A DNA stretch of 64,000 nucleotides from a virus. Its lineage: Duplodnaviria; Caudoviricetes. The DNA lies in the IMG/VR virus record IMGVR_UViG_3300044988_001028, positions 4,039 to 68,038 of that record. One strand, given 5' to 3'. The position numbers were made by a program, and so were the translations under genes. Numbering within the stretch: the stretch's first letter is position 1; every line of letters starts with the position of its first letter. This document shows, piece after piece, positions 6,075-63,831 of this stretch. The notes under the pieces are model-generated. The model saw only the letters and a program-made list of their open reading frames with translations, searched no databases and had not been told where the DNA came from.

Positions 6075-7405
6075 TTATGTTAAATATCCTTGTAGCTGTA
6101 TATCTCTTATTAGACCATAGAAGCCACCTCCAGACTTCTGGCTCGCAGTAGCCGAACTACCAAATATTGATATTCTGTAGTAAGAATATAAAGCTGGAGA
6201 AGCAATCGTAAAAGTAGCAGCAGAACCAACTGTTGCGAGTGTTCTTGTGTCTAATAATGTCCATGTTCCAAAAGTGTTCGCACCATAAACTCTAAATGAA
6301 TAAGTAGGAATAGCACCAAACACATTACTACTCCAAAGTTTATATGAAGTCAATGTGATAGGGTAATCAAATCCCAGATATCCCTCTTTCGTAGATCCAG
6401 CAGCAACAAAGAAAGCATTTGCGTTGTTTTTTGCAGTAGTCCATGCAGCTATACTATCAGTAAGGTTTAGAACAGTTCTCATGTTGAATGCGGAACTGAA
6501 TGGATCAGTATTCGTAACCACACCAGAACTTGTTAGATATTTCACAGTAGGGAGTAAGGTATTATATCCATGCAAAGCACATGGTGTTGTTGGGCTTTCA
6601 TATCCCCACAATTGTACTTCTCCGAGTTGAGTGTCATAACTACAATTACCACTCTTGCCACAATTCCAACCTGTTCTACCTCTTGCCGAGAGAACAAGTC
6701 TGTAAGATTTATAAGCTGCGGGTGATGATATCTCGAATTCCGAATAGCTGCTTGTTGCTGGATCATTTGTGCTGGCATAAGGCAACATCGCTTGGCTAGT
6801 TCTTGTATCGACTGTTGTCCAACTTATTTCATCGTTGCTGCCTTGCAATGACCATGCTTGCGGAGTTTGATTGCCTAAATCAGAATAATTTTGATAAACT
6901 CCAATATTAGCCATGAACCCATTCCACATTCTATATTTCGTTATGACTGTTGGAATTCTAAAATCAAAAATGAATGTCGGTAATGCTTTGCTCGAAACGG
7001 TATAGCTATAAGAACTATTCAAGGTGTTCTGTAGTGGGAGATAACCGTTTAAAATACAATTGTTAAGGTTGTTGTTTACAGATGTAAAATATTGTCTGTA
7101 ATCAGCATTTATGAATGTTGGATCATAAGTCACACCACCGCCAACTAAAGCTCTTGGTGTCGAATTAACACTTAATATCATCGTGTTTGGTGCTGCTGTC
7201 GTTGTGGTAGTTGTAGTCGTGGTTGTAGGTGCTGCTGTCGTAGTAGTTGTAGTCGTGGTTGTAGGTGCTGCTGTAGTTGTAGTTGTAGTTGTAGTCGTAG
7301 TTGTAGGTGCTGCTGTCGTAGTAGTTGTAGTCGTGGTAGTACCAGAGCTAGTAAAGGCTTTAAGCTGACCTTTCAAAATCATGCTTCCTAGTATTTTCAA
7401 TCCCA

Positions 7406-34384: not shown

Positions 34385-34436
34385 TAAATTTAATAGCAGA
34401 CAAGTCTAAATAATCATATCCAGACGATGGAGATAA

Positions 34437-34895
34437 ATGATTATTTGGACTTGTCCTATTTGTAAAACCGATGATTTGACATTGAGATATAGTTCTGGAA
34501 AAATGCGTACATGCAAAGATTGTCAGAAATATAAAAATATTCAAGCAAATTGTTCTGTCAAAAGAAAAAGAAAAAAAACTCCTCAAGTCGCTATCACTCA
34601 AGAAGAATTTCTCACATGGATAAAATCACATGTGAGAAAATGTTTTTATTGTGGTGTCACAGAAGCAGAACTTTTAAATTTATCAATATATTCACAAATT
34701 GGATTGTTAGTTGAATCATTGGGCGTAGATCGCATCGATAGCGATAAGGATTACACGCTTGATAATATCGTTCTTTGCTGTCTCGCATGCAATAAAGTAA
34801 AGAGCAATAGTTTTAGCCAAGAGGAAATGGGATCTTTGGGAAAGACCATTTCGCAAATTTGGCAAATTAGAAAAGAAAATAAAATCAATTTTTAA
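34437..34895 (+). CDS. Zinc-ribbon plus HNH-type endonuclease
   Basis: CPIC...CKDC; CFYCG...GVDRIDSDKDYTLDNIVLCCLACNKVKS. Confidence 0.75.
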   Translation: MIIWTCPICKTDDLTLRYSSGKMRTCKDCQKYKNIQANCSVKRKRKKTPQVAITQEEFLTWIKSHVRKCFYCGVTEAELLNLSIYSQIGLLVESLGVDRIDSDKDYTLDNIVLCCLACNKVKSNSFSQEEMGSLGKTISQIWQIRKENKINF

Positions 34896-48696: not shown

Positions 48697-51600
48697 ATGT
48701 CTAATAAGTTCATGCATGGTTCTTCGCTTCTTATTGGCGACAACACAATTCCCGGAGTTCAGCTTCCAAAACAATTAAAAGAATATGCTCAAATAATTTT
48801 AAATGTTTGTAAAGATTGGGGTTTGGACTTTTATCCAACCGTAGTGCAACTTCTTACCTACGATGAAATCTCTGAAGTAGCAGCGTATGGTGGTTTTCCA
48901 GTACGATATCCACATTGGTCATTTGGCATGCAATATGAAGAATTGCAGCGTGGATATGAAAATCAAATGCACAAAATATATGAGATGGTTATCAATTGCT
49001 GTGAACTTGACGCTCCGGTTTTGACTAAGCGTGGTACAATTCTAGCTGGAGATGTGAAGGTAGGAGATCAAGTTATTGTTGGTAGTGAAACTAGGAATGT
49101 TGTCGCCATAAAAAAACAAAATTCTTCTCAAACCAAGAAAATTTTTCTTAAAGGTGGTCAGACATTAGTTTGTACGCCAAATCACAAGTGGCGTATACTT
49201 TCCGATAAAGGTTTGATCTGGAAAAAGACATCTGAAATTATTTCTGGTGACATTTTTGTAGGAACTGATTCTTATGAAAATAATTGGGATGCACCAAGTA
49301 TTGACTGGTCATCAAAACAAGTCATTGAATCAACAAGACCAAACATTAGACATTGTGTCAAAGAAATTTATCCGCCAAATCAGATTACTATGGAATTGGC
49401 AGAACTTCTTGGAATTTTGGTTGGAGATGGATCAGTAGGAGTAAAGTCGGCTGAAAATATGTTGACTGTTGCTGTTGGTAAAAAACATAGGTCATACGCA
49501 GAACATGTTGTATTTTTGTTTGAAAAGGTATTTGGAATCGGAGCAGATATTTACGAAAAGCCAAATTGTTTCAATGTAACATTATGCTCAAAAAACGCAG
49601 TTGATTTTGTTAATTCGATTGGTTTAAAGAAAGGCAACACATTTAAAGAAAAAGTAATTCCAGATATTATTTGGAAGTCTCCTCCTGCCTATAGATGTGC
49701 TTTTATTCGTGGTTTGTTCGATACTGATGGCTATGTGGTTAACCATGTTGGTTTTAGTTGCTACAATAAAAAATTGGCAGATGATGTTCAGATTATGCTT
49801 TCAGAAATGGGAATTCTTTCTAATTTAAAAACATTAAAAAATGGCAAGGGTAAAAAAGGTGATCAAAAATATATTAATGTTGTTAAAATTAAGGGAATTT
49901 GGGCTGAAAATAAATTTTACAATAGAATAGGTTTTGTGCTTAACTATAAGCAAGAATTACTTAAAAAATTACTTGATAGAAAATTTTGTCGTAATGGAGG
50001 TATGGAGTTGCCATATATTCAACAACAATTGATTATGTGGGCAAAAAATCTAAACATTACAACATATAACAACCATAGTCTTGGCTATTCAATTAAAATG
50101 TTCGAGAAACAAAAAGTTGGGATTAATTCTTTTTCTTCATTTGTACAAAGAGCAGAAAATCAAGGATTAAGTGTTCCAAATGAAATTAAAGATATTATTT
50201 CAAATCCTTTATTTGTTGTTGAGCATGTTGTTGATGGAGATGAGATCGAAACTGTTGATATTGCATTGGATCATGATGCTCATGATTTTATTGCATATGG
50301 ATTGATTACTCATAACACATCGCCATGTTACATCTATTGCTTAGATAGCAACACATTATTGGATCATCTGACTGTTATCGCTCACGCCACTGGTCATAAT
50401 GATTTCTTTAAAAATAATATTCACTTTTCTGCTACTGATACAAACATGTTGAACAACATGGCAAATCATAGTAGCCGTATTAAAAAATATATGGCTAGAT
50501 GGGGCAAGGAAAAGGTTACTGAATTTCTTGATTATTTACTTCGCATTGATACTTTGGTTGATGGAGCATCGGCTTGGCATCAAAAAGTTATCAAAGATAG
50601 AAATATTATTGATAAAAGAAATTATAGATTTCCAAAAAGACTTAAAGTTGATAGTGATCGATTTTATATGGATAATTACATCAACACAAAAGAGTTCAAA
50701 GAAAGAGAAAATGAAAAGGTAAAAGATAAGGATCTTGCAGAAGAACTTGGATTTTTTATAGAACCAGTTAAAGATATATTTGGATTTTTGCGTGATAATG
50801 CTCCACTTAAGCCTTGGCAACAAGATATCATGTCTATGATCTATGAAGAATCAATTTATTTTTTCCCACAGAGACAAACCAAAGTATTAAACGAAGGATG
50901 GGCTTGCGGACGAAAAGATTCTCTTGTATCTACAAATATGGGCATTTTGACATTAGGTGAAATTGTCGATAAAAAGTTGCCTGTTATGGTTTATGATGGT
51001 GAAAAATCTAGAAATGTTACAAATTGGTTCACTTTTGAAAATCGTGATGTTTATAGGATTGAAACTAGAAGAGGATATGTTTTTGAGGGTTCAAATAATC
51101 ATAGAATTATGGGTAATAATGATTGGGTTCGTCTTGATAAAATGAATGTAGGTGAAAAAGTTAAAATATCATTTTCAAATATTTGGACGAAAAAATATCA
51201 AAAAATCGATTATAAATTGCCCAATAAAAGGATAGAATTGAAGCAAATTTGTAAAAAAGCATCAGTGACTATGTCTCAAGTCGTTTATAGAAAATATCAT
51301 TATAAAGGTGAAGAAAAAAATGACAATTTAGACAAATTGCTCAAGCAATATGATGATCAGTCTATGACATGCATGAGAAATAAAAGGAAATGTATATCTT
51401 TGCCTTTTTTTATGGATGAAGAATTTGCTTCATTTGTTGGATATATGATTGGAGATGGTCATATATCTAAAAGCAAGAGAACTCTTGGCTTAACAACTGG
51501 AGATAAAGATCAAGCCGATAATTATATTCGTCTTACAAAGAAATTATTTAGTATAGATTGTAAATCTAGTTGGGATGACACATCTAAAAATGGTCGATAT

Positions 51601-52803
51601 AGAATTTCTGTAACTTCAAAAGAACTTGAAGAACTACTTGTTTATTTGGGAATGAAAACTGGAGTCTGTGCTAGGATTAAGCAAATACCAGAAATTATTC
51701 TTAAATCGCCCAAGAGTGTTATCGCTTCTTTTGTAAGATCGTATTTTGATTGTGATGGTTATGCGGGGAATGCTGGTGTCATTCTTTCCACCGCAAGCGA
51801 AGTTCTTTCCAGACAAATACAAAATGTTTTGTTGAATTTTTGCATATTATCAACAAGACGCAAACAAAAAGATTCTTGTTGGCATGTACGCATAACCGGA
51901 CAGGAAGCGGTAAAGTATTATGAGCAAATAGGTTTTGGATTATCTAGAAAACAGCAAAAGTTAAAGAAGTATATTGACAATCATAAATGGTTTATTGATC
52001 AAAAACTTGAAGATGAAATTGTTTCTATCGAAAAAATTGGAAAAGATACAGTGTATGACATTACAGTAGAAACAAGTCATCGATATTCGGCTTGTGGATT
52101 TATGAATCATAATAGTATGACTGACCATGTTATCATGGCAGAACAGGGTTATGTCGGCTTGGGTCAAAAGACTCATGATTCTGGAATCATTGAATACGCT
52201 GCACACAAGATGGGTGTTCTTGGTGGAAAATATAGCACCAATCCTTATAAGCTAGGATATAATCTTTTGTCCGATATTCGCAATCGTTGGGATAAAGGTC
52301 AATTCGGCAATGAATGGGATGATTGCACAAATTCTAGCAAGAAAGAAAAATGGGATACCAAGGCAATGCTTGGTAAGGAAAAAATATTTGAAGTTAGAAA
52401 GTATTACGATGATCTAACTTTAATACATGAATTTTTTACCGAGGATTTCTGTCGAGAACAAGAATACTTTGAACATAAGCGTTATCCAAGCGGAGAGACG
52501 ATTCTTGAAAGTCATGATTACAATAAGATAAAAAAATTGTTGATGGCTCGCCATGTAAATGGAGGACTGCCAGATATTCGTTTAACAGAGCCTAATTATC
52601 GTGGTAAGGGCTATCTGATGCTTGAGCATACATTTGAAGGCAGACCGCTTCATGAGCCTTATGTTCGAGATGTATTGGTTGGTCTAAGATTCATTTGGGG
52701 AAATGATGTTTTTCTTTCCACTAAAGGTCATGATGGTACTGATGTCGTATTCGAATGTTTCGATAATGATCCTGCTAATGTAAGAATTCGAGAAAAGAAA
52801 TAA
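48697..52803 (+). CDS. spoVR: SpoVR/YcgB family protein containing two inteins
   Basis: GGFPVRYPHWSFG, IYEMVIN|TSPCY, VIAHATGHNDFFKNN, TKVLNEGWA|S, NPYKLG; about 525 aa after removing the inteins. Confidence 0.92.
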   Translation: MSNKFMHGSSLLIGDNTIPGVQLPKQLKEYAQIILNVCKDWGLDFYPTVVQLLTYDEISEVAAYGGFPVRYPHWSFGMQYEELQRGYENQMHKIYEMVINCCELDAPVLTKRGTILAGDVKVGDQVIVGSETRNVVAIKKQNSSQTKKIFLKGGQTLVCTPNHKWRILSDKGLIWKKTSEIISGDIFVGTDSYENNWDAPSIDWSSKQVIESTRPNIRHCVKEIYPPNQITMELAELLGILVGDGSVGVKSAENMLTVAVGKKHRSYAEHVVFLFEKVFGIGADIYEKPNCFNVTLCSKNAVDFVNSIGLKKGNTFKEKVIPDIIWKSPPAYRCAFIRGLFDTDGYVVNHVGFSCYNKKLADDVQIMLSEMGILSNLKTLKNGKGKKGDQKYINVVKIKGIWAENKFYNRIGFVLNYKQELLKKLLDRKFCRNGGMELPYIQQQLIMWAKNLNITTYNNHSLGYSIKMFEKQKVGINSFSSFVQRAENQGLSVPNEIKDIISNPLFVVEHVVDGDEIETVDIALDHDAHDFIAYGLITHNTSPCYIYCLDSNTLLDHLTVIAHATGHNDFFKNNIHFSATDTNMLNNMANHSSRIKKYMARWGKEKVTEFLDYLLRIDTLVDGASAWHQKVIKDRNIIDKRNYRFPKRLKVDSDRFYMDNYINTKEFKERENEKVKDKDLAEELGFFIEPVKDIFGFLRDNAPLKPWQQDIMSMIYEESIYFFPQRQTKVLNEGWACGRKDSLVSTNMGILTLGEIVDKKLPVMVYDGEKSRNVTNWFTFENRDVYRIETRRGYVFEGSNNHRIMGNNDWVRLDKMNVGEKVKISFSNIWTKKYQKIDYKLPNKRIELKQICKKASVTMSQVVYRKYHYKGEEKNDNLDKLLKQYDDQSMTCMRNKRKCISLPFFMDEEFASFVGYMIGDGHISKSKRTLGLTTGDKDQADNYIRLTKKLFSIDCKSSWDDTSKNGRYRISVTSKELEELLVYLGMKTGVCARIKQIPEIILKSPKSVIASFVRSYFDCDGYAGNAGVILSTASEVLSRQIQNVLLNFCILSTRRKQKDSCWHVRITGQEAVKYYEQIGFGLSRKQQKLKKYIDNHKWFIDQKLEDEIVSIEKIGKDTVYDITVETSHRYSACGFMNHNSMTDHVIMAEQGYVGLGQKTHDSGIIEYAAHKMGVLGGKYSTNPYKLGYNLLSDIRNRWDKGQFGNEWDDCTNSSKKEKWDTKAMLGKEKIFEVRKYYDDLTLIHEFFTEDFCREQEYFEHKRYPSGETILESHDYNKIKKLLMARHVNGGLPDIRLTEPNYRGKGYLMLEHTFEGRPLHEPYVRDVLVGLRFIWGNDVFLSTKGHDGTDVVFECFDNDPANVRIREKK
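48997..50316 (+). mobile_element. Intein 1 (440 aa) with LAGLIDADG homing endonuclease
   Basis: Begins CCELDAPV; block B CTPNHK; LLGILVGDG and FIRGLFDTDG; ends ITHN before Thr. Confidence 0.9.
50905..52113 (+). mobile_element. Intein 2 (403 aa) with LAGLIDADG homing endonuclease
   Basis: Begins CGRKDSLV; GSNNHR; FVGYMIGDG and FVRSYFDCDG; VYDITV...MNHN before Ser. Confidence 0.9.
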
Positions 52804-52814
52804 AGGAAAAAATT

Positions 52815-53036
52815 ATGGATTGGCTATTATCAGATGAATTTGTCACTTTTTCTCAGCGAGTTTCTGAAATTCACAATGAGAAAAAACAGATTAAACAACA
52901 ATTAAAAGAGTATTATGAAAAAACACAGGTAAAATTAAAAGAACTTGAAGCTCAAGCTCAAGCTTTATCTGATGAATTTGAAAAATGGAAAAAAATACAG
53001 TCTGAAGAACCTACAAAGGCATCAATTAAGAAATAA
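52815..53036 (+). CDS. Small coiled-coil protein
   Basis: 73 aa; AAGGA SD. Confidence 0.6.
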   Translation: MDWLLSDEFVTFSQRVSEIHNEKKQIKQQLKEYYEKTQVKLKELEAQAQALSDEFEKWKKIQSEEPTKASIKK

Positions 53037-53079
53037 CTTTTAATTCTGCAGAACCGTCTAAAAGATTGAAATAATTGTG

Positions 53080-53108
53080 AAGCCTCCAACTAAATATATT
53101 GGAGGTTT
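53080..53108 (+). promoter_or_regulatory. SD-sequestering hairpin with a late-promoter motif in its loop
   Basis: AAGCCTCCAA-ctaaatata-TTGGAGGTTT, ATG at 53110. Confidence 0.7.
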
Positions 53109-53109
53109 T

Positions 53110-53898
53110 ATGAAATATTCAAGTCAAAGACTTACCTATCAATTCGTTCAAAGTTTCTTCTTAAAAAATGGTTGCAAATTATTAGAAGATACTTATATCA
53201 ATGCTCGCACACCAATGAGGTATCGTTGTTCTTGTGGAAACGAATCTAAAATTGTTTTTTATAGTTTCAAATCTGGCAATAGATGTAAAAATTGCGGTTC
53301 TCGCAAAATAAGCGAACGATTCTCTTATTCTCATGAAAAAATAAAATCTGAATTCGCAGCCGTTGGTTGTACGCTTTTGGATCAATACGAAAAGTCTTCC
53401 AAGAATATGCGATATATTTGTTCTTGTGGCAAAGAAGCAAAGATCTCTTGGAATAATTTCAGAACAGGTAAAAGATGTTGGGATTGCGGAATTGCCAAAC
53501 GATCTGGAGAAAATCATTATGAATGGGTTGATGATCGAGAGAAATTTAAAATGGACTTGATATTTCGACAGAGATCGTATAAATTATTGAGTATGAGTTT
53601 GGCGGTTACTGGCAGAGTAAAAAAGTCTAAAACTTCAGCTTTACTTGGCTATGATTATAAAGAATTGCAAAATCATATAATCAATCATGAGAATTATGAA
53701 AAGGTAAAAAATGGAAAGTGGCATATTGACCATATTTTCCCAATCAAGGCGTTTTCAGATCATAAGATTTGGGATTTGTCTTTGATCAATTGTTTGGAAA
53801 ATTTACGACCAATTTCAGCTTCTGAGAATTGTCGTAAAAATGCAAAGTACGATAAGCAAGAATTTTTAATTTGGCTTCAAACTAAACAAAGAGATTGA
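53110..53898 (+). CDS. Free-standing HNH homing endonuclease with repeated Zn-binding N-terminal modules
   Basis: Two C.CG...C..C repeats; WHIDHIFP...NLRPISASENCRKN. Confidence 0.8.
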   Translation: MKYSSQRLTYQFVQSFFLKNGCKLLEDTYINARTPMRYRCSCGNESKIVFYSFKSGNRCKNCGSRKISERFSYSHEKIKSEFAAVGCTLLDQYEKSSKNMRYICSCGKEAKISWNNFRTGKRCWDCGIAKRSGENHYEWVDDREKFKMDLIFRQRSYKLLSMSLAVTGRVKKSKTSALLGYDYKELQNHIINHENYEKVKNGKWHIDHIFPIKAFSDHKIWDLSLINCLENLRPISASENCRKNAKYDKQEFLIWLQTKQRD

Positions 53899-53925
53899 AC
53901 AATGACATTTACGAAAGGAGTAACA

Positions 53926-55288
53926 ATGAAGGTGGAGATTGTTGGTTTTGAACATCTCCACCTTCATTAGTTACTCCGACTTTTCCGTCCTCGATGGGCT
54001 TGGAACATGCGAAGAATATTCGGTTCGTGCTACAGAAATAAATCAAAATTTTCTTACAATTAGTGATCATGGCATGTTGGGAGCAGTTCCCAGACAAATC
54101 AAAGCATGCGAAAAGATATGTGATAAATATGGGAAAAATAAACTTTCTCCCATATTCGCTGCGGAACTTTATGTAAATAGATTGCAACCACAATCCTCTT
54201 CTTTGTCGGACATGCAAAAATTTTCTGAATCTCTCTCTCCAAGTGAATTATTGGAACTGAGAGCAAGTCCACACTTATTAGCCATAGCATATAATGAAAC
54301 TGGATATAAAAATCTTGTTCGTTTGACATCTTGGGGTTGGACGAAAGGATTTTATAGAAAGCCAAGAGTAAATTACGAACAACTTGAGAAGCATAAAGAA
54401 GGCTTATTTTTTACAAGTTGTTGCTATAACAGCGAAGTTGGCAGAGCATTTGATGCTGGCGGAGAAGAAGCTGGATTTCAAATGATAGAACGATACATTC
54501 AGATGTTTGGTAAAGAAAATTATCTGCTTGAAATTATGCTTTTAGATTTTGTTAAACAAAAACCTTATGACGCTTTTATTGTTAAAGCAAAGCAAAAATT
54601 TGGATTGAAGATTATTCTTACGCAAGATTGTCATTATTGCCGTAAAGAAGATAGTCACTTGCAAAGACTTATGTTGATGGTTCAGACCAACAGAACATTA
54701 AAAGAAATTCAAAGGGCAATGAAAGAAGATTCAATGCAGGATTTCTTCGAATTGCAGGATGCTAATCTATGGATGAAATCTGAGGAAGAACTTAATGAAA
54801 AGTGGCTGAGTGATTATAAAGATATTATTCCTTATGAAATTTTTTGCGAAGCTAAAAAGAATACAGTAGAGATTTGTCGTAAAGCAAAAGGTGTCGAATT
54901 AGATAGAAGTCTGAAACTACCTATATTTCCAGATTGTGACCAAAGGCTTAAGGATGAAGTCTTGAGAGGATTTAAACATCGTAATTTGCCAATGACTACA
55001 GAATATAAAAATAGAATAATTGAAGAGTTGAGCCTTATAACTCGCAAAGGTTTTAGTACATATTTTCTTATTCAAAAGATGATGACTGACGAAGCAAGAA
55101 AATGGTGTAGAGAAAATATCGGTGGTGATGGAACTCAAGCTGTAGGACCCGGAAGAGGAAGTGCTTGTGGATCTTTGGTTTGTTATTGCCTTGGAATCAC
55201 TGATGTCGATCCAGTATATGAAGGTCTTTTGTTTAGTCGATTCATGTCTGAGGCTAGAGGCGGTAGATCTATTTGTTTTGATTTGTAA
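53926..55288 (+). CDS. dnaE: DNA polymerase III alpha N-terminal part (PHP domain to first palm segment); interrupted at the 5' end, truncated at the 3' end
   Basis: MKVEIVGFEHLHLH then TAG; the next frame gives SDFSVLDG, ISDHG, AAELY, HLLAIAYNETGYKNL, GFYRKPR, TQDCHY, GPGRGSACGSLVCYCLGIT.VDP...LLFSRF and stops before PDID. Confidence 0.85.
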
Positions 55289-55340
55289 AAAAATATTTTT
55301 AAAAATCAAAAAAATAAAACAATAAAACTATATTAATTTT

Positions 55341-55760
55341 ATGGAAACTACAATCACTGTAGATCTCGGCACGATGCCAGATCTCATCTATATGATCATC
55401 AAGGATGAAACCTTATTCGCTGAACTAAAGGCGGAATTTCCAGATATTCTTGCCGACCTAACAACATTAAAAACCAACCCAAACTGCTCATGCAGAGGAA
55501 AGGTTGGCAAGTTTTTTTCCGACAAAGTAGCTGCTGATCCGAACATTTTGGAAAAGTACTACAAGGATAAAGCTGCGATAGTTAAAGAACTTGAAGCCAT
55601 TAAGCTAAAAAGAGTAAATAACGCAATTAATGGTAAGGTTTTCAAGGTGCAGCTTGGTGATGAAGCTTGGGCTAATTTCAACAAGACTATTACCGGAAAA
55701 ACTTTTAGAAGCTTCTCGGTTGTTCGAGAGTTCGATTATATGTGGGTTTATTTCCTATGA
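55341..55760 (+). CDS. Hypothetical protein
   Basis: 139 aa with NPNCSCR motif. Confidence 0.6.
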   Translation: METTITVDLGTMPDLIYMIIKDETLFAELKAEFPDILADLTTLKTNPNCSCRGKVGKFFSDKVAADPNILEKYYKDKAAIVKELEAIKLKRVNNAINGKVFKVQLGDEAWANFNKTITGKTFRSFSVVREFDYMWVYFL

Positions 55761-56044
55761 TATTTTTAATTTATCTAGTTGCATGTCTCGGTGTCGCATA
55801 CGCTTGGTCCGACACCGATGTTGCACGACCATTTAGAAACTTGGTAGCTAAGATACCATATGTTAATGTTCCAATGCTTTGCCATGAATGCAGCAGTTTT
55901 TGGTTTTCTTTAGGAATCTCATTTTTGCTCAATCCGGTAGGTGAACTATATGTTCCATTTGCTGGAAATCTGATTTCTGCCTTTTGTGGGTTTTTTGCAA
56001 ATCTTTTATTCGTTCGTAACCGATGGGTATCCTACAAAGAATAG
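55757..56044 (+). CDS. Small membrane protein (DUF1360-like CxxC)
   Basis: Hydrophobic helices, RPFR, LCHECSSFW. Confidence 0.55.
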   Translation: MIFLIYLVACLGVAYAWSDTDVARPFRNLVAKIPYVNVPMLCHECSSFWFSLGISFLLNPVGELYVPFAGNLISAFCGFFANLLFVRNRWVSYKE

Positions 56045-56063
56045 AAAAAATTCTAAATTAAAG

Positions 56064-56099
56064 AAAAAAAACAGGCTTGAAAATCAAGCCTGTTTTTTT
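56064..56099. terminator. Bidirectional intrinsic terminator
   Basis: AAAAAAACAGGCTTGA-aaa-TCAAGCCTGTTTTTTT between convergent genes. Confidence 0.85.
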
Positions 56100-59000
56100 A
56101 ACATGCATTATTATCTGCAGTTTTAACAGCACCAGTATAAGTCATTTGACCAGATGCTCTAGTGCTACCAATAATTGCCGACCCAGCATACCCACTTATA
56201 TTTATATTAAATGATGTTCCTGTTGGAATCGTAATTGATGCTAAGGTTGCTGCAACTCCTCCGGGTCCAATGTTTGAAACAGAACCACTGGCAAAAGTAG
56301 TTCCACCAACAGTGATTGTGAAATTAACACTTCTAGATCCAGCAGGAAGTTCATTTGGAAGATTTGAAAAATCACTTGCACATACGAAAGCACGGAAAAC
56401 TAATTTTACCGTTAGTGGAGGCAGATAACAAATTCCTTCTTCGCAAGTTTCGCCAGCTGGACATGCATTTCCGCAAGATCCACAATTAGATGAACTTGTT
56501 TCTGTATTTGCACAAACACCAGAGCAACAAGTTTCTCCAGCAGCACAAGCGTTTCCGCAAGTTCCGCAGTTTGCTTCATCTGTTTGAAGTGCTTTGCAGA
56601 CACCATCGCAACATGTGTAGCCAGCAGCACATACAGTTCCACAAGTTCCACAGTTAGCTTCATCTGTTTGTAATGCTTTGCAAACACCAGAACAACATGT
56701 GTAACCAGCAGCACAAGTGTTTCCACAAGTTCCACAGTTTGCTTCATCTGTTTGTACGGCTTTACAAACACCAGAGCAACATGTTTCGCCAACAGCACAT
56801 TCTATTCCGCAATCACCACAATTTAATTCATCCTCATATGTCGCTTTGCAAAAGCCGTTGCAACATGTTCCGCTACAAGAGCTTCCGCATGTTCCACAAT
56901 TGCTGAGATCGGTTGCTGTGTTTCTACAAACACCAGAACAACAGGTGTAGCCAGCAGCACACTCTATTCCGCAACCTCCACAACTAGCTTCATCTGTTTG
57001 TACGGCTGTGCAAATACCACCGCAACATTCTTGACCAGCAGCACATACAGTTCCACAATTTCCGCAATTTTCTTCATCTGTTTGTACTGATTTACAAACA
57101 CCAGAGCAACATTCTTGACCAGCACCACATATAGTTTCACATGTTCCGCAATTAGCTTCATCTGTTTGGAGTGCTTTACAAACACCAGAACAACATTCTT
57201 CGCCAGCACTACAAGCGTTACCGCAAGCTCCGCAATTAGCTTCATCTGTTTGAAGTGCTTTGCAGACACCATCGCAACACTCTTGACCAGCAGCACAAGC
57301 GTTACCACAAGTTCCGCAGTTTGCTTCGTCTGTTTGTACAATTTTACAAACACCACCACAACATAGTTCGCCAGCAGCACAAGCGTTGCCACATGTTCCG
57401 CAATTAGATTCATCTGTTTGTACTGATTTACAAACACCAGAGCAACACTCTTGACCAGCACCACATACAGTTTCACAAGTTCCGCAATTAGATTCATCTG
57501 TTTGTACTGATTTACAAACACCAGAACAACATAGTTCGCCAGCAGCACAAGCGTTACCACATGTTCCGCAATTAGATTCATCTGTTTGTACTGATTTACA
57601 AACACCAGAGCAACACTCTTGACCAGCACCACATACAGTTTCACAAGTTCCGCAATTAGATTCATCTGTTTGTACTGATTTACAAACACCAGAACAACAT
57701 AGTTCGCCAGCAGCACAAGCGTTACCACATGTTCCGCAGTTAGCTTCGTCTGTTTGTACTGATTTACAAACACCAGAACAACATTCTTCGCCAGCAGCAC
57801 AAGCGTTACCACAAGCTCCGCAATTAGATTCATCTGTTTGAAGTGCTTTACAAATACCAGAACAACATTCTTCGCCAGCAGCACAAGCGTTACCACAAGT
57901 TCCGCAATTAGATTCATCTGTTTGTAATGATTTGCAAACACCAGAGCAACATTCTTGACCAGCACAAGCGTTTCCGCAAGTTCCGCAATTAAATTCATCT
58001 GTTTGGAAAGAGCTAGTGGCAATACATGAGCCATTGCAACATTCTTGACCAGCACCACAAGCGTTCCCGCAACTTCCACAATTAGATTCATCTGTTTGGA
58101 AAGAGCTAGTGGCGATACATGATCCATTGCAACATTCTTCGCCAGCAGCACAAGCGTTTCCGCAGCTTCCGCAGTTGGAACTATCAGTTTGGAAAGAGCT
58201 AGTGGCAGTACATGAGCCAGAGCAACATGCAAAATCTGGCAGACTACAACAGGCAGTTCCTTCGCAACATTCTTCTCCCACGACACATTCTGGATCACAC
58301 CCTAGATGTTTGGGTGTGCATACACCATTTATACAATGCTCGTTAACAGTACAAATTATGCCACAATCGCCACAGTTATTTTTGTCAGCGCCCATTACTG
58401 GTATGCATAAGTTTTCAACTCCATCAAAGCAACATTTCGTTCCCGCAGCACAAGCATTGCCACAACTAATACAGTTTTCGTCTGTTCCAAGATCGGTGCA
58501 AGTTAGATTTGGAGGCGTACCACAACATCCCTGACCTTCGGTACATGCAGTAGGACAAGTTCCGCATTGGTTTTCGATACATACGCCAGAGCAACATGTT
58601 TCGCCAGCAGCACAAGTTACTCCGCAATCGCCGCAGTTAGATTCGTCATCGCCCATCACCTCTGTGCAATCACCATCACAACATTTTTCACCAGCATCAC
58701 ATGTTCTTCCGCACCCTCCGCAGTTGAATTCATCAGAAGGTGTGCAGTTATTGTTGCAACAGAGTGGTTCAAGGACAGTACATACTCTTCCGCATTGTCC
58801 GCAATCAGCTGGAGTGTTTAGAACTTTGCAGCTGCCATTGCAACATTCCGAAACTCCAGTGCATTTTATACCGCAACCGCCGCAATTGTCATTGTCTGTG
58901 TTGGTATTTTTACATGAGCTATTACAGCATGTCTCTCCTGCGGCACAAACATTTGGACATGATCCGCAATGATTTTCATCGGTTTTTGTGTTAACACATG

Positions 59001-62000
59001 TATCGTCTGGAAAATCTCCGCAACATGTAAATCCAGTAGCACATGATCCGCCACAAGGTGCGCATGGAGGAAAATGTTGAGATCCGTCTTCGTGTACAGT
59101 TGGACAACCACCAGTACACATGTTTCCTCCTAAGTGGGTATCATCACAACAACTATATTGATATGCTTCGCCCGGGTTATTCCACCATGCGTAGCATATT
59201 CCTCCCATTCCAAATGGAGCAGGGCATATGTAAGAACTAGGATTTTCATAGTCTAAATAAAAACATCCAGCACAAGGTCCTTCTCCAGAAGAGCAGGTTC
59301 CCTGCGAAGGGCAAGGATATCCGAATGTTTCTGCAAATGCTCCACTGCATCCCGGAAAGTTGCAGGAATCGTAGCATTCACAGGAAATTAATTCCCATTG
59401 CAATGCACCTACATTTCCTACTGCCTTATATGAGCAGCCACCATAGCAACTCTTCGCAGGTACAGCTGCTCCTGAAGAACCGACAGATCCGCATGAATCA
59501 TAAGTGCATGGTATGGTCGTTCGTTGACCCCATGAGGTTGGTGCAGATCCCAACAAACTAGCCTGTTGTGCTTCTGTCGGAAGCTTGCATGTTCCACATG
59601 GCACACATTCACCATCCTTGCACTTCGTAGTTGGTGCAGCTCCGGGTTCTGGACATTCAGTGCCATTATCTATTGGTGTTGAAACAGGAGGAAGTGGGTC
59701 GCCATTTCCATCTTCTCCCGGAGATAACATGGCTGTAGGCGTGTTGCACGGTTGGTTGCAACCACCGCAGTGGTTGTTGTCTGTCTGTGGGTTCACGGGA
59801 CCGGAAGTTGGAGGACCGACATCTCCATATTGATTAGGCGCTGGATATGTCGGGCAGCAAATTTGAGGATCGGCAACTCTGACACCACAAGCACCACAGT
59901 TGTCGTTGTCAGTCAAAAGGCTTACGATCTCGCCCTCGCAGCATTTCTCCTGCACTTGATCGGATGTGTCCGCTACATTTCCGCAACCACCACAGTTATT
60001 GTCGTCCGTGTTCGTGCTGGCAAGAATAAAAGTTGATTCGTCTGGCGCACCATCAACAACAACTACTTGCGGACAGCAAGATGTAGGGTTTGTCGCATTG
60101 TCGGGATCGGCTGTGTCGCCGCAACTCAAGCAATTTTCATTCGTGCCACTTGCCGTAGGAACTCCATCGCAACAAAGGTCTTCAGCCACGACTTCGCATC
60201 CGCCGCAGTTTCCCACATCGTCCATTACATCTATGCATGAACCATCGCAGCATTTCTCTGTTGCCGAACAAGCGTCACCACAACTAGCACAATCTGTTTC
60301 GGTTCTTGCTGTAGGAGTTCCATCACAGCAAAGATCTTCGGCTACGACTCCGCAACCACCGCAGTTCGCCACATCATCCATCACATCTATGCATGAACCA
60401 TCGCAGCATTTTTCTGTTGCCGAACAAGCGTCACCGCAATCGGAACAGTTGGTTTCGGTTCCTAGTTGGGTGCATTCGTCTACATTACAACACTTTTGTC
60501 CATCTGGACATGCGTTCGGACAAGGTCCACATGCGTTCGCTATGCATCCAGAAGCACCGCAGCATTTCTCGTCTGGAAAACACACAGGGTTACACAACGC
60601 ACAGTGTCCAGTTCCATCGCAGTATTGATCTCCGGTGCAACATGTTGCACTACTTCCAGAACCACAGCATTCTTTTCCCGGATCGCAACAATTAGGACCG
60701 CAGCAGGTTTGTCCAGCGGTACATTCGCATGTGGTGCATGCTCCATCTTCTCCGCAAAAATCGGTATCTGCACAACATCCATCATTACAGCAAACCTTGC
60801 AGCATGTCGTTCCTCCCTCGCAGCACGATTCGTCTTCGGCACATGGAGAAGGGCAACCTGTACAAACTCCGTCTTTGCAAGTCTCATCAGAGGCACAAGG
60901 ACCGCCACCACAACCACCGCAATTGGCACTGTCAGTTTGCGTGTCCACGCATTCCGTATTACAACAGGTCAATCCGTTTGGGCAAGGATTTGGATCGCAT
61001 TCACTTCCATCCCCGCTGCAACCGGCTGCACAGTTCTCTGCTCCGATGTAAGATCCTACTAGTGCTTGTGATACAGGGTCAAACGATGCTTTTGGTATAC
61101 AGTAAGTTGGCATATCTTGTCCTTCTATGGGTTTTACGCAATAATATATATCTCCAACACAGGCATATTTGTCATCAACGCAATATGTGTAATCTGGTTC
61201 TTTTCCGCAGGTACCAGAAAATCCAGTTCCGCCCGGCTCTTCATACAGAACCCATCCTCCGCCTACAGCATTGAAATAACAAGATCCTTCACAGCTTGCC
61301 GTGTTTCCAACGCATGAAGCCACGAAAGCGACATCGTCCGGTCCGGGGAATGGAGGCATTCCAGCTTCATATCCCTGACACTCGCATTCTGGTTCCGCAC
61401 AGTTTCCCAAGAAACATTTTGGAACTGTAAATGTGTCGCCGGGAGGTTCTTGACATACATTTCCACAACCACCGCAGTTTTCTGGATCAGTTTTTAGGTT
61501 TTTACACTGACCATTGCAGCACTGCCACAGATTGATCTGGTTGATCATTTGCGGACACTCGATTCCGCAACCTCCACAATTAGCTTCATCTGTTTGAGTG
61601 TCTTTGCAAACACCACCGCAGCACTCGCCAGAACAAGGAACTCCACAACCACCGCAATTGCTCTCGTCAGACCATATGTCGATGCATGAATTGTTGCAAC
61701 AAGCGGTTCCAGCTTCTAGACATGGAGGGTTGCATGCCAAGCAAACACCATTTACGCAAGAGTGTCCTCCGACACAAACAGTTCCGCAATTTCCGCAGTT
61801 GTTGTTGTCGGTTTGCGTGTTTGTGCAATTCGTGCCAAAGCAACAGGTGTTTTCGGCAGGGCAGCAATTGCCGTTGCAACAGGATGGATTGATGCCAGTG
61901 CAGACATTTCCGCAAGCTCCGCAATTGTTTACGGAAACTGCTAAAGGTCTGCATTCGCCATTGCAACATTGAATGTTGAGACCGGGATCGTTGCCACACA

Positions 62001-63831
62001 CAAAGTCGCAAGCTCCGCAATTTGTTCTATCCGATAACACATCCCTACATCTAGCAGTGCCATCGCAACACAATTGCCCTTCCACACATGCGGGAAGACA
62101 ACACCAATCGGCACACTCGCCATCACAGCACACTTGATCTTCTCCGCAGAAATTTCCACATTCTCCGCAGTGATTTGGATCATTCATCACATCCGAGCAG
62201 ACTTCTTCCCCTCCAAACATGCAGCATCGGTTGTTTCTTTCGGAGCCAAAAGTTCCGCAACATTCGCCATTGCAACAGACTTCTCCAACTTCATCACTCA
62301 CTCCGGGTGGTTCGCATATTGTTCCACAATCTCCGCAATTTTCGACATCAACCAATGTGTTTTTGCACTCACCATCACAGCAGTCTTGGTCGGGATCGCA
62401 TGGGGGAAAGCAACTGACGCATTCGTGGGTGACAACTTGACCATTTGTCGTTCCGTCTGCTGTCGGAGCTTCTTCTGGACAGTTGCATCCCTGTGGACAT
62501 GTTGAAGTCTGAGACCATGACCCACCTTCTGTTGGCGGAGGAGGGCATTCGCAAAAAGTGTCATATTGATAGGTGGAACACATATCATCTGGAATAAAAT
62601 CTGGATATGGCGTGTTGCAACCCGATGGACATATGTCTGTGGTATTCCATCCATCTGGAGTTGGAGGACATGGGTCTGGAGGAGTCCAATCCCAATGTAC
62701 AGGAATAGTGTCGCAAGTTTCTGGAAGGCACTGACCACATGGTTCGAGAGCTTCCGGTGGAGACCATATCTTATATTCGGCACCAAGACATGTTGGACGA
62801 CCTTGTAATTCTTCAGGTTGGCAACAAGTGGAATCTCCAGTCGAACAATTTTCGTCTGTTGGCACAAGACTAGTCAAGTAATAACCTAACTGAGCATTTC
62901 CATTACTAGGATCGTTAGCAAGGCAGGTGTAAGTTTTACAGCAACCAGTGAGAATGGGATCACCATTCCAAGTCCAAGAGCATTCATTCAACGCACAAGG
63001 GTCTTTACAAAGTCCATCCTTGCATATTTCGCCAAATGCACAAGCCCGTCCGCAAGCTCCGCAGTTCGATGTGTCGGAACCCATAACATCAATGCAAGAA
63101 CCAGAGCAGCAGCTTTCTGAAGGTTCACAAGTGATGCCACAACCACCGCAGTTCGTAGTATCTGTTTGAAACGATATTGTGAGTAAGCATTCTTCATTGC
63201 AGCATGTTTCATCATTTTCGCATACATTGTTGCATGTTCCGCAATGATTAGGATTGCCTATTACGCAAGTAAGGATGTCATCAACGAAACAACAAGAATC
63301 TGTTGTACAGCACTCGCCATTGCAGCAAATTGGCGTTGCTTCAGGGCAAACATTTCCGCAACTATTACAATTATTGCTGTCTTCATATATGTTTTTGCAT
63401 TCGCCAGCACAGCAGTCTTGATCTGGACCGCAAGCTATGGGGCAACCTCCACAATGGTCATGATTTGTTTGTGTGTCTACGCAAACATTGTCGCAGCATG
63501 TCTCTGAAGGTTCGCATGTGACCCCACCACAATTACAACAGGTTCCAGAGCATTCGACTTGAACTATACCTTCGCAGCATCCGACTAGGGTTGAATTAGA
63601 TCCTTCGAAGTCAGGATCGCATGGAGGGGGGTTTGTCGGCAATCCGGGAGGCGGAGAAGATGAGCATCCTTCTGGACAAGGAACAGTCAGAACCCATTGA
63701 ACATTGTCAAGTGGTCCGCCACATTTTCTCGGATCCCAAACTACAGCTTCATAAGAAGCAGAGTATCCGCAAGCTTTGTCGGCAAGTGCAAAAACTATAT
63801 CCCATTTTTCCACCAGTTTTGGATCTATCAT
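56098..63831 (-). CDS. Giant (2577 aa) Cys-rich repeat protein (Stig1-like C..D..NCG.CG..C..G..CC.G.C repeats)
   Basis: Dozens of 6-Cys repeats and a short beta-rich C-terminal domain; ATGA overlap with the upstream gene. Confidence 0.85.
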   Translation of the reverse strand: MIDPKLVEKWDIVFALADKACGYSASYEAVVWDPRKCGGPLDNVQWVLTVPCPEGCSSSPPPGLPTNPPPCDPDFEGSNSTLVGCCEGIVQVECSGTCCNCGGVTCEPSETCCDNVCVDTQTNHDHCGGCPIACGPDQDCCAGECKNIYEDSNNCNSCGNVCPEATPICCNGECCTTDSCCFVDDILTCVIGNPNHCGTCNNVCENDETCCNEECLLTISFQTDTTNCGGCGITCEPSESCCSGSCIDVMGSDTSNCGACGRACAFGEICKDGLCKDPCALNECSWTWNGDPILTGCCKTYTCLANDPSNGNAQLGYYLTSLVPTDENCSTGDSTCCQPEELQGRPTCLGAEYKIWSPPEALEPCGQCLPETCDTIPVHWDWTPPDPCPPTPDGWNTTDICPSGCNTPYPDFIPDDMCSTYQYDTFCECPPPPTEGGSWSQTSTCPQGCNCPEEAPTADGTTNGQVVTHECVSCFPPCDPDQDCCDGECKNTLVDVENCGDCGTICEPPGVSDEVGEVCCNGECCGTFGSERNNRCCMFGGEEVCSDVMNDPNHCGECGNFCGEDQVCCDGECADWCCLPACVEGQLCCDGTARCRDVLSDRTNCGACDFVCGNDPGLNIQCCNGECRPLAVSVNNCGACGNVCTGINPSCCNGNCCPAENTCCFGTNCTNTQTDNNNCGNCGTVCVGGHSCVNGVCLACNPPCLEAGTACCNNSCIDIWSDESNCGGCGVPCSGECCGGVCKDTQTDEANCGGCGIECPQMINQINLWQCCNGQCKNLKTDPENCGGCGNVCQEPPGDTFTVPKCFLGNCAEPECECQGYEAGMPPFPGPDDVAFVASCVGNTASCEGSCYFNAVGGGWVLYEEPGGTGFSGTCGKEPDYTYCVDDKYACVGDIYYCVKPIEGQDMPTYCIPKASFDPVSQALVGSYIGAENCAAGCSGDGSECDPNPCPNGLTCCNTECVDTQTDSANCGGCGGGPCASDETCKDGVCTGCPSPCAEDESCCEGGTTCCKVCCNDGCCADTDFCGEDGACTTCECTAGQTCCGPNCCDPGKECCGSGSSATCCTGDQYCDGTGHCALCNPVCFPDEKCCGASGCIANACGPCPNACPDGQKCCNVDECTQLGTETNCSDCGDACSATEKCCDGSCIDVMDDVANCGGCGVVAEDLCCDGTPTARTETDCASCGDACSATEKCCDGSCIDVMDDVGNCGGCEVVAEDLCCDGVPTASGTNENCLSCGDTADPDNATNPTSCCPQVVVVDGAPDESTFILASTNTDDNNCGGCGNVADTSDQVQEKCCEGEIVSLLTDNDNCGACGVRVADPQICCPTYPAPNQYGDVGPPTSGPVNPQTDNNHCGGCNQPCNTPTAMLSPGEDGNGDPLPPVSTPIDNGTECPEPGAAPTTKCKDGECVPCGTCKLPTEAQQASLLGSAPTSWGQRTTIPCTYDSCGSVGSSGAAVPAKSCYGGCSYKAVGNVGALQWELISCECYDSCNFPGCSGAFAETFGYPCPSQGTCSSGEGPCAGCFYLDYENPSSYICPAPFGMGGICYAWWNNPGEAYQYSCCDDTHLGGNMCTGGCPTVHEDGSQHFPPCAPCGGSCATGFTCCGDFPDDTCVNTKTDENHCGSCPNVCAAGETCCNSSCKNTNTDNDNCGGCGIKCTGVSECCNGSCKVLNTPADCGQCGRVCTVLEPLCCNNNCTPSDEFNCGGCGRTCDAGEKCCDGDCTEVMGDDESNCGDCGVTCAAGETCCSGVCIENQCGTCPTACTEGQGCCGTPPNLTCTDLGTDENCISCGNACAAGTKCCFDGVENLCIPVMGADKNNCGDCGIICTVNEHCINGVCTPKHLGCDPECVVGEECCEGTACCSLPDFACCSGSCTATSSFQTDSSNCGSCGNACAAGEECCNGSCIATSSFQTDESNCGSCGNACGAGQECCNGSCIATSSFQTDEFNCGTCGNACAGQECCSGVCKSLQTDESNCGTCGNACAAGEECCSGICKALQTDESNCGACGNACAAGEECCSGVCKSVQTDEANCGTCGNACAAGELCCSGVCKSVQTDESNCGTCETVCGAGQECCSGVCKSVQTDESNCGTCGNACAAGELCCSGVCKSVQTDESNCGTCETVCGAGQECCSGVCKSVQTDESNCGTCGNACAAGELCCGGVCKIVQTDEANCGTCGNACAAGQECCDGVCKALQTDEANCGACGNACSAGEECCSGVCKALQTDEANCGTCETICGAGQECCSGVCKSVQTDEENCGNCGTVCAAGQECCGGICTAVQTDEASCGGCGIECAAGYTCCSGVCRNTATDLSNCGTCGSSCSGTCCNGFCKATYEDELNCGDCGIECAVGETCCSGVCKAVQTDEANCGTCGNTCAAGYTCCSGVCKALQTDEANCGTCGTVCAAGYTCCDGVCKALQTDEANCGTCGNACAAGETCCSGVCANTETSSSNCGSCGNACPAGETCEEGICYLPPLTVKLVFRAFVCASDFSNLPNELPAGSRSVNFTITVGGTTFASGSVSNIGPGGVAATLASITIPTGTSFNINISGYAGSAIIGSTRASGQMTYTGAVKTADNNAC
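56440..58230 (-). repeat. 84-nt coding tandem array with 168-nt higher-order units
   Basis: tactgatttacaaacacc recurs at 57421, 57505 and 57589; alternating CGNACAAGELCC / CETVCGAGQECC units. Confidence 0.9.

Follow-up and report, generated by a model that had tools for sequence, protein, structure and literature searches.

How can a phage polymerase gene be expressed when its reading frame closes just after the first conserved motif and reopens, 7 nucleotides (nt) further on, in another frame? This question is raised by a dnaE gene in the stretch of DNA analysed here (the window), 64,000 nt of a Caudoviricetes virus record (IMG/VR IMGVR_UViG_3300044988_001028, positions 4,039 to 68,038), in which a stop-containing gap of 7 nt separates a short first open reading frame (ORF1) from the remainder of the coding sequence (ORF2). 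The window makes up the final 64 kb of a 68-kb record with a CheckV completeness of 9%, and the phage is a very large one from a lake, since the record of one relative measures 381 kb at a completeness of 79%. Comparison of the locus with its relatives suggests that the gap is probably crossed by a programmed short translational hop, in an arrangement resembling a small T4 gene 60/mobA cassette, and all of the support for this hop is comparative.

The interrupted start of dnaE

The N-terminal half of the polymerase is encoded in a frame of 449 amino acids (aa; 53939..55288) that lies +1 relative to ORF1. This frame matches the profiles for PHP (PF02811, 7.4e-30) and DNA polymerase III (Pol III) alpha (PF07733, 2.7e-24), the latter over the first 98 of its 260 positions only. 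A search of the protein collection gave 1016 relatives (E up to 0.001) among 5404 candidates, and nearly all of the best 120 of these are 400-490 aa long with the same two Pfam domains. The relatives of this N-half all stop a few residues past ...EARGGRS, the window version ending in ...ICFDL (55260-55290), and the C-half with the finger domain is a separate open frame of 850-932 aa, located a few kb away, in 5/5 larger related records (G001-G005). The ORF is the N-terminal part of DnaE in a gene that is split family-wide, not truncated; no C-half was found on this 68-kb record and no intein motif was seen at the dnaE break.

At the start of the gene, a Shine-Dalgarno (SD)-like GGAG (53917-53920) and an ATG (53926-53928) lead into codons for the first PHP strand with its His-x-His-x-His motif, and a TAG stop (53968-53970) stands directly after the last of these codons, CAT. 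Skipping 7 nt resumes TCC GAC TTT TCC GTC CTC GAT GGG from 53975 (SDFSVLDG), in frame with the 449-aa ORF, and ORF2 encodes the remaining PHP domain together with the beginning of the Pol III alpha domain (Table 1). This layout, first proposed in a preliminary description of the DNA made from its letters only, was found with every element at the position given there. The DNA coding for HLHLHSDFSVLDG exists in uninterrupted versions in the related loci L058 and L004, and L004 encodes MKVEIVGFEHLHLHSDFSVLDGL contiguously. If the gap is crossed by hopping, the TAG would occupy the ribosomal A site at take-off and the TAC at 53972-53974 would be the near-cognate landing triplet for peptidyl-tRNA-His.

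Two start codons come into question for ORF1. Besides ATG 53926, an in-frame ATG lies upstream at 53902, 3 nt past the stop of an HNH endonuclease-like gene, and an in-frame ATG 13-17 codons before the Phe codon is present in 15 of the 15 rows with a gap after HLHLH, compared with 4/19 uninterrupted rows. This upstream ATG is usually preceded by an SD-like motif and its distance varies by whole codons only; K-G-G/V/D residues are conserved in ORF1. The AAAGGAG motif is either the ribosome-binding site for ATG 53926 or, if the start is 53902, an internal motif. ORF1 may therefore comprise 22 codons with AAAGGAG inside, the bare sequence being compatible with both starts. The preliminary description had mentioned neither this ATG nor the HNH gene before it, and had not recognised the ORF as one half of a split dnaE.

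An alternative genetic code was considered and rejected, since a reassigned stop would leave the 7-nt frame break unrepaired. Indeed, the standard code is in use in the window, where all three stops end long ORFs (48 in total: TAA 30, TGA 13, TAG 5) and no tRNA gene was found.

Table 1 Elements of the interrupted dnaE start and the gene preceding it (window positions)
Feature	Position	Strand	Remarks
HNH endonuclease-like gene, free-standing	53077..53898	+	273 aa; stop TGA 53896-53898
ORF1 of dnaE	53902..53967	+	22 codons from ATG 53902 (MTFTKGVT + MKVEIVGFEHLHLH) or 14 from ATG 53926 (MKVEIVGFEHLHLH)
AAAGGAG, SD-like motif	53914..53920	+	Kept in gap-bearing relatives
Hairpin	53917..53977	+	5' arm: SD-like motif, ATG 53926, KVEI codons; 3' arm: HLHLH codons, stop, gap
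Proposed take-off codon CAT (His, last codon of ORF1)	53965..53967	+	CAT or CAC in all gaps after HLHLH
Coding gap TAGTTAC, 7 nt	53968..53974	+	Clean insertion relative to uninterrupted L058, L004 and L061
ORF2 of dnaE N-half	53975..55288	+	Resumes at TCC (SDFSVLDG...); ends ...GGRSICFDL; stop 55286-55288

Recurrence of gaps among relatives

The 5' ends of 136 related loci were compared, 56 from viral contigs and 80 from metagenome contigs. Both anchors, an [FY]EHLHLH-type motif and LDG, were present in 121 of them, giving 83 distinct 5' regions. The other 15 loci, without one or both anchors, stand outside this tally; ten were inspected by eye (L110 showing a new gap site, L080 being a duplicate and eight being uninterrupted), and the remaining five (L075, L092 and L134-L136) begin inside the gene. 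Among the 83 regions, 39 are uninterrupted with no extra bases, 41 carry gaps of 5-56 nt and three carry group I introns. The extra bases amount to 5 nt in one region, 6 nt in four, 7 nt in eight, 8 nt in 15, 9 nt in one, 40-47 nt in eight, 54-56 nt (as two gaps) in four and 223-227 nt in the three with introns. In the sequences compared, the interruptions all fall within the coding stretch for HLHLH(S/T)DFSxLDG, about 40 nt. The annotated N-termini of the best 120 of the 1016 relatives form three groups: normal starts of the form M..EIVGFEHLHLH(S/T)DFS.LDG, odd starts that are +1 or +2 readings of the same DNA (LNISTFISYSDFS..., MNIFTCTDHTDFS...), and truncated calls beginning MLDG..., MVEEY... 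or MLGAVPRQ....

Short gaps were found at several sites, after HLHLH in most cases including the window, after HLHL in L110 and after FS.L in L039, L044 and L048, while longer, hairpin-containing gaps lie after (S/T)D, after SDF or after FS.LL. A stop codon opens each of the 17 distinct short strings found after HLHLH, TAG in 15 and TGA in two, and past this stop the gap strings have no conserved sequence. Gap length varies between close relatives: L042 (5 nt) and L047 (8 nt) are 90.2% identical over 1333 nt, L046 (6 nt) and L047 (8 nt) 82% identical, and L107 (9 nt) and L046 (6 nt) 83.5% identical. A separate IMG/VR record, L049, carries the same 7-nt gap as the window.

Because the gap recurs in many forms and is shared by L049, it is neither an assembly artefact nor a one-off inactivating mutation, in agreement with the preliminary description, which had called for an alignment of homologous 5' ends and had judged the downstream codons undecayed. 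Twenty-three lake-water DNA runs hold all sampled words of 52800-56100, all of them being possible sources of the record and none counted as independent support, and the word share of 0.17 in RNA run X24 is evidence of neither expression nor habitat. That the polymerase gene is dead, or its start misassembled, with an inactivating indel in a decaying sequence, is in our view extremely improbable. A stop and a frame break 14 codons into a gene do resemble a pseudogene, and an in-frame TAA also breaks the gene, at another place, in L058, the nearest uninterrupted relative; however, the 449-aa frame is intact and 97% identical to the collection protein P0007, the interruption occurs in 41 distinct variants, at the same motif each time and with a covarying hairpin, and ORF1 is still under selection, as described below. 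The TAA of L058 (about 4605-4610 of that locus) replaces a sense codon inside the N-half (EELG*IIRKGF, compared with EELSLITRKGF in the window), and may reflect mutation, sequencing error or a further recoding site.

The longer gaps show further arrangements. Four two-gap genes (L056/L086, L087, L088 and L096) combine 8 nt after HLHLH with 46-48 nt after FS.LL, the second gap beginning with TAA or TGA and containing a GC-rich hairpin; two bypass events would be needed within 30 codons. The gaps of L010/L080 (41 nt) and L021 (40 nt) contain a covarying GC hairpin and both finish in ...GCGCAAAAAAC. Small introns without ORFs lie between FSL and LDG in L031 (2767-2992) and L051 (2769-2996) as well as in L032, L033 and L133; those of L031 and L051 were recognised by Rfam as group I introns (90.7 and 102.4 bits, respectively), and the insert of L137, which lies elsewhere, is taken for an intron on account of its size and position only. 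Three kinds of interruption, namely introns, micro-gaps and hairpin gaps, compete for a single stretch of 40 nt.

Selection on ORF1 and the case for independent initiation

Is the peptide of ORF1 a part of the polymerase? Each of the eight GFEHLHLH codons varies among the 17 distinct interrupted sequences; in seven the changes are synonymous only, one alternates between F and Y, and in the other two frames of the same stretch 0/7 codons vary synonymously only. The peptide frame of ORF1 is under purifying selection. The H-x-H motif is encoded in ORF1 only, and reading the window from TTG 53939 gives a PHP profile match from position 6, compared with position 2 in the intact proteins P0007 and P0010. 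In addition, the HLHLH-(S/T)D spacing is invariant in 39/39 distinct uninterrupted regions, and the Pol III alpha of Taq (2hpi) aligns FAHLHQHTQFSLLDG to the motif without a gap.

These observations bear on a scheme without any recoding, in which ORF1 would be a leader peptide and the N-half would start at TTG 53939 or downstream, either lacking the H-x-H strand or binding the ORF1 peptide non-covalently. A leader peptide followed by a hairpin is a common regulatory layout, the 7-nt variants do contain an in-frame TTG, and gene calls in the collection begin LNISTF... or LSVSNISTF... (P0006, P0009 and P0011). Nevertheless, the TTG at 53939 sits in the hairpin loop without an SD motif, the PHP profile is truncated without ORF1, and selection on GFEHLHLH would be needless for a mere leader. 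Independent initiation moreover cannot explain the family, since the 8-nt variants have a resume-frame stop nine codons upstream of SDFS with no ATG, GTG or TTG between, and the in-frame gaps of the 6- and 9-nt variants put a stop inside the only frame. We therefore regard this scheme as decidedly unlikely, and the internal TTG start without HLHLH, which the preliminary description had named among the findings that would overturn its proposal, fails to account for the relatives.

Landing triplets and the case for frameshifting

Under a programmed hop, the peptidyl-tRNA would be expected to re-pair with a codon resembling the one it left. After the take-off codon CAY, the landing triplet is NAY in 12 of the 17 distinct strings. 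Exact take-off/landing matches were observed in L073 (CAC..CAC), L048 (CTT..CTT) and, across 44 nt, L077 (TTT..TTT), and other pairs are CTC..CTT (L044) and CTT..CTA (L039 and L110, the latter with the layout CTT|TAGCTA|CAC). For CAU to UAC in the window, a first-position G.U pair, deduced from the standard anticodon of tRNA-His, may provide a third match. The TAG that would stand in the A site is the rarest ORF-ending stop of the window, which is compatible with slow termination and only suggestive.

Conventional recoding offers a different account, in which a +1 shift at CAU-UAG would read AGU UAC and yield HLHLH-SY-SDFS, with +2 shifts, -1 shifts or readthrough in the relatives. Seven nt are two codons plus one base, and a +1 shift at the stop, as in prfB, would restore the frame; the resulting HLHSYSDFS would keep one H-x-H at its usual distance from SDFS, and an A6 run closes the 40- and 41-nt gaps of L021 and L010/L080, where frameshifting or slippage is a possible alternative. 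However, CAU offers no re-pairing in the +1 frame (AUU), and the 15 nt upstream of CAT-TAG contain no SD-like motif. As lengths of 5, 6, 7, 8 and 9 nt occur, no single frameshift size serves the family, and +1, +2 or -1 shifts plus readthrough, four different events, would be required within lineages that are 82-90% identical; in the 44-47 nt gaps, which have internal stops, readthrough is impossible. The would-be inserted residues (SY, VY, AN, VD, VL, AV, VN and GY) are unconserved beside invariant flanks, and the two residues that a +1 shift would add inside the motif, an objection already raised in the preliminary description, have no counterpart in the gapless spacing of the uninterrupted relatives and of Taq. 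Conventional recoding of this kind is for these reasons unlikely, and the programmed hop proposed at the outset, from CAU over UAG to the near-cognate UAC, is the best-supported reading on comparison with the relatives.

A hairpin linked to the gap

The interrupted start folds into a long hairpin, as had been predicted from the window alone, with the GF codons in the loop, a bulged A at the stop codon and GGAG paired with CTCC (53974-53977) at the base. The minimum free energy of 53900-54000 is -44.5 kcal/mol, compared with a mean of -21.1 for shuffled sequences (z -7.20; 0/200 shuffles as stable). The ungapped core is 15 nt long and 100% complementary (53925-53939 with 53954-53968), and because of this length it was missed by a repeat search with a minimum of 16. 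No terminator-like site was found at 53917-53977 in a terminator scan of 52700-56200. The pairing of the insert with the SD region, also part of the preliminary description, holds for the window and for L002, L012, L073 and L107, but not for all relatives.

Comparison across homologues ties the helix to the gap. A contiguous helix of 12-15 bp ending at the take-off codon is present in 26/26 distinct short gaps after HLHLH, whereas the median of the best helix over three equivalent positions is 7 bp for 37 uninterrupted regions, of which only two reach at least 12 bp. When 14 distinct gap-bearing sequences are aligned without gaps, the 12 inner pairs form in 14/14 rows, with compensatory double changes at three pairs (CG/AU 8:6, GC/AU 11:3, and AU/GC 6:6 plus two GU), bearing out the covariation that had been suggested as a check. 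The numbers of paired cells and of doubly changed cells and the covariation score were each reached by 0/500 shuffles, and in 19 uninterrupted relatives pairing in these columns stands at the shuffle level, 53.8%. Where the gap lies two codons further downstream (L008, L010, L021, L041 and copies of these), the helix moves with it, so that its 3' arm still reaches just to the take-off codon, and measures 11-19 bp in 6/6.

The placement of the gap within this helix could also be taken to mean that the 7 nt are eliminated or made harmless in the RNA or the DNA, by hairpin-guided splicing or editing or through a mixed population with insert-less genomes. The bulged A at the stop codon and the self-splicing group I introns in the same coding stretch of relatives are in keeping with such an event, yet no known mechanism excises 5-9 nt, the gaps share no sequence beyond the stop codon, and the independent record L049 has the same gap. 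We consider removal very improbable, and the comparison lends no support to the RNA processing or the template-switch on/off element that the preliminary description had offered as alternatives. A further idea, that the hairpin bridges an SD motif to a position suitable for the landing site, was discarded: the summed SD-helix and helix-resume distances range over 7-17 nt in 15 variants, and no bridging is claimed because these distances show no conserved geometry.

Two side observations concern such helices. The uninterrupted gene L076 (and its copy L078) has a 15-bp helix between the start and HLHLH and a long N-terminal extension, and may be a cassette that has precisely lost its gap or a precursor state. 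Elsewhere in the window, a 19-nt inverted repeat (34399-34455, 95% complementary) has a 3' arm beginning with the ATG of an ORF at 34437..34895, forming a start-sequestering hairpin.

The upstream HNH gene and the mobile-cassette context

The gene directly upstream of dnaE matches phrog_559 ('HNH endonuclease', 3.2e-17) and phrog_1035 ('endonuclease VII', 3.7e-8), with no match in Pfam. Together with the leader it makes up 911 nt (53018-53928), in place of 97 nt in L058, between two blocks of homology to that locus (50500-53017 and 53929-56043). L058 is the closest uninterrupted relative found and is 91% identical at the protein level to P0007, which in turn has a different and uninterrupted N-terminus despite its overall identity to the window protein. 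The empty site is polymorphic across the family: in a tree of 54 N-half proteins the interruption state needs at least 15 changes, ten of which are forced by well-supported branches.

An HNH gene or a remnant of one was found upstream in 10/44 distinct interrupted loci, including one with a group I intron (L051), compared with 1/39 uninterrupted loci (L028). The raw counts were 11/44 and 2/39, from which two spurious hits were removed (L056, with its duplicate L086 counted as one, and L072) that cover only the first 47 residues of a stop-to-stop segment and probably belong to the preceding gene. In L002/L003 no HNH remnant was detected by BLASTP of P0002 against the 87-aa upstream frame (E 2.5), and only about 30 nt of DNA similarity lie upstream of the leader.

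Homing endonucleases typically target highly conserved sites. It is conceivable that the gap protects its carrier from the adjacent HNH enzyme, an immunity that we infer from the place of the gap, in the best-conserved part of the coding sequence, where relatives also carry group I introns. Next to dnaE lies another heavily invaded gene: the 1368-aa SpoVR-like protein encoded at 48697-52803 (+) holds two inteins with LAGLIDADG homing-endonuclease domains (SpoVR 4.6e-93, LAGLIDADG_3 1e-36, Intein_splicing 8.4e-19), and its homologue in L058 is 931 aa long, with fewer or smaller insertions.

Proposed mechanism

A hop at this locus could proceed as follows. Ribosomes would translate the 14 or 22 codons of ORF1 and reach CAU with UAG in the A site. 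Instead of termination, the mRNA would slip forward by 7 nt while peptidyl-tRNA-His stays in the P site, re-pairs at UAC and allows decoding to resume at UCC. The product would be a single polypeptide joined as HLHLH|SDFSVLDG, a junction that uninterrupted relatives have as well. The proposed stimulator is the long hairpin, its 3' arm being formed by the last 12-20 nt of ORF1. When CAU is in the P site, the last 12 nt or so of ORF1 are inside the ribosome, and the 5' arm would already be outside it at take-off. Once codon and anticodon have dissociated, each base of forward movement would add one base pair to the helix behind the ribosome, and the zipping helix would both pull forward and block backsliding. 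Gap and hairpin would together form one mobile cassette, here accompanied by the HNH gene and the leader, and most other interrupted relatives would have lost the HNH gene or never had it. By breaking conserved DNA that is probably the endonuclease target, the gap would make its carrier immune, mirroring the T4 gene 60 gap and MobA.

Several observations weigh against this mechanism. Five of the 17 landing triplets are not NAY (CTT twice, GTC, TTT and CAA), and in the window CAU and UAC match at positions 2 and 3 only. The 40/41-nt gaps of L008, L010 and L021 depart from the rule of a stop directly after the take-off codon, those of L010 and L021 lacking an adjacent stop and ending in A6. ORF1 is only 14-22 codons long, which leaves no space for the long nascent-peptide signal that gene 60 requires, and so short a peptidyl-tRNA may easily drop off. 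No A-site stem-loop after the take-off codon was found in the short gaps; in the window fold, this codon is in the 3' arm of the upstream hairpin. The helix is weaker at the FS.L site (6-7 contiguous bp, or 11 bp (5+6) with a mismatch, in three variants), is absent in L089 (5 bp) and is also long in two uninterrupted genes, L076 being one of them, while the number of pairs with both sides changed was reached by 142/500 shuffles. The 41 gap-bearing variants are related by descent and their counts are not independent events, and an upstream HNH gene or remnant is detectable in only 10 of the 44 interrupted loci. Taken with the evidence above, we still judge a programmed short hop to be probable.

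Other features of the window and related contigs

Downstream of the dnaE N-half, a perfect 16-bp hairpin flanked by A7 and T7 (56065-56099) lies between convergent genes (55742..56044, + strand, and 56098..63831, - strand) and looks like a bidirectional intrinsic terminator. The second of these genes is a 2577-aa ORF with a G+C content of 0.42-0.49 in a neighbourhood of about 0.33. On the phage contig of L031, a full-length transfer-messenger RNA gene (6703-7061, Rfam 112.1 bits) lies about 4 kb downstream of dnaE; a phage-encoded ribosome-rescue RNA near genes that possibly stall ribosomes is curious. A match to the L20 leader in L001 was weak and below threshold, and was set aside.

Comparison with known recoding systems

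To our knowledge, programmed bypassing is established with certainty only for T4 gene 60 and its homologues and for Magnusiomyces mitochondria. Gene 60 with MobA shares much with the dnaE gap: a phage gene of DNA metabolism interrupted by a short non-coding gap near the start of the ORF, a stop directly after take-off, a 5' helix, an HNH-type gene immediately upstream and a patchy, mobile distribution. The accessible text of a preprint (10.1101/2022.08.31.505936) attributes to the gene 60 gap the shielding of its carrier from MobA nicking, and the metagenomic bypass cassettes that this text describes are all in topoisomerase genes. A zipper 'motor' formed by the 5' stem-loop is the current model for gene 60, as far as it is set out in the accessible parts of PMC5009743 and 10.1101/2024.12.09.627546.

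The differences from gene 60 are also considerable. The gap measures 7 nt here and 5-9 nt in most relatives, as opposed to 50 nt; the host gene is dnaE, at its PHP motif, and not a topoisomerase II gene; the 14-22 codons of ORF1 leave no room for the 46-codon nascent-peptide signal of gene 60; and the A-site take-off stem-loop of gene 60 is not present here. Whereas the helix of gene 60 ends 9 nt before the take-off codon, the 3' arm in the dnaE family runs up to it and, in the window, through both this codon and the gap. Take-off and landing codons are identical in gene 60 and near-cognate here. The endonuclease gene lies upstream of dnaE and does not split the gene as it does in T4, the likeness described here being one of layout. 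Most carriers of the dnaE gap are without an HNH gene, which recalls the 'hit and run' of a section heading in the accessible text of the gene 60 preprint.

A second parallel is the synthetic stop-hop of E. coli, likewise a short, frame-independent hop of peptidyl-tRNA over a stop to a nearby similar codon, and L048 (CTT TAA CTT) and L110 (CTT TAG CTA) have exactly this layout. Synthetic stop-hops are reportedly low-efficiency events in artificial constructs, unlike the sites described here, which are natural, conserved, located in an apparently essential gene and provided with a dedicated hairpin. In these constructs a stop stood between matched codons (Weiss et al. 1987, cited in the accessible text of PMC5009743). 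That review, published by Atkins and colleagues in 2016, knows in its accessible text of no natural in-frame stop hopping, and states that bypass over shorter distances has 'long been presumed'.

The byp elements of Magnusiomyces capitatus mitochondria, according to the accessible text of the same review (PMC5009743) and of the preprint 10.1101/2022.08.31.505936, are also many short, mobile, frame-breaking inserts (27-55 nt) that are bypassed; their take-off and landing codons often match at two of three positions, as here, and, being GC-rich and hairpin-like, they resemble the 40-56 nt gaps of L041, L077 and L010. They are mitochondrial, place an unused sense codon in the A site and, by the review's account, depend little on mRNA context, whereas the dnaE gaps belong to a phage with the bacterial code, place a stop in the A site and are tightly linked to an upstream helix. 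In the +1 frameshift of prfB, as at the dnaE gap, an A-site stop triggers an early change of reading frame, but the dnaE gap has no slippery P-site codon, no SD motif 3 nt upstream, and a displacement of 7 nt (5-9 nt in relatives). Lastly, a candidate bypass in Streptomyces phage terminase genes is, in the accessible text of PMC5009743 and PMC10732093, a short gap in a phage coding sequence proposed from sequence comparison, as is ours; it involves a rare UUA codon, is proposed to be regulatory, and comes without a stop codon, an endonuclease cassette or a hairpin at the start region.

Implications

No published gap or bypass in dnaE or in a phage polymerase was found in the full-text literature, subscription journals lying outside its coverage. 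The gaps may represent an undescribed class of natural, mobile micro coding gaps, consisting of stop-hops over 5-9 nt at no fewer than four positions (at least 4) together with hairpin gaps of 40-56 nt, which would be efficiently decoded by means of a zipping helix between start and take-off site, a minimal bypass signal independent of the nascent peptide, and which homing endonucleases would exploit to destroy their target without killing the gene; for this wider proposal we see the chances as evenly balanced.

If the hop is real, the family would supply dozens of natural short hops that vary in gap length, site in the gene, landing codon and helix sequence, and these natural variants would be a ready-made mutational series for the 'mRNA zipper' model in a system far simpler than gene 60. 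For annotation, gene callers give these polymerases wrong starts or truncate them, many entries beginning LNISTF..., MLDG... or MVEEY.... The locus is also relevant to the competition of homing endonucleases, introns and coding gaps for one conserved target.

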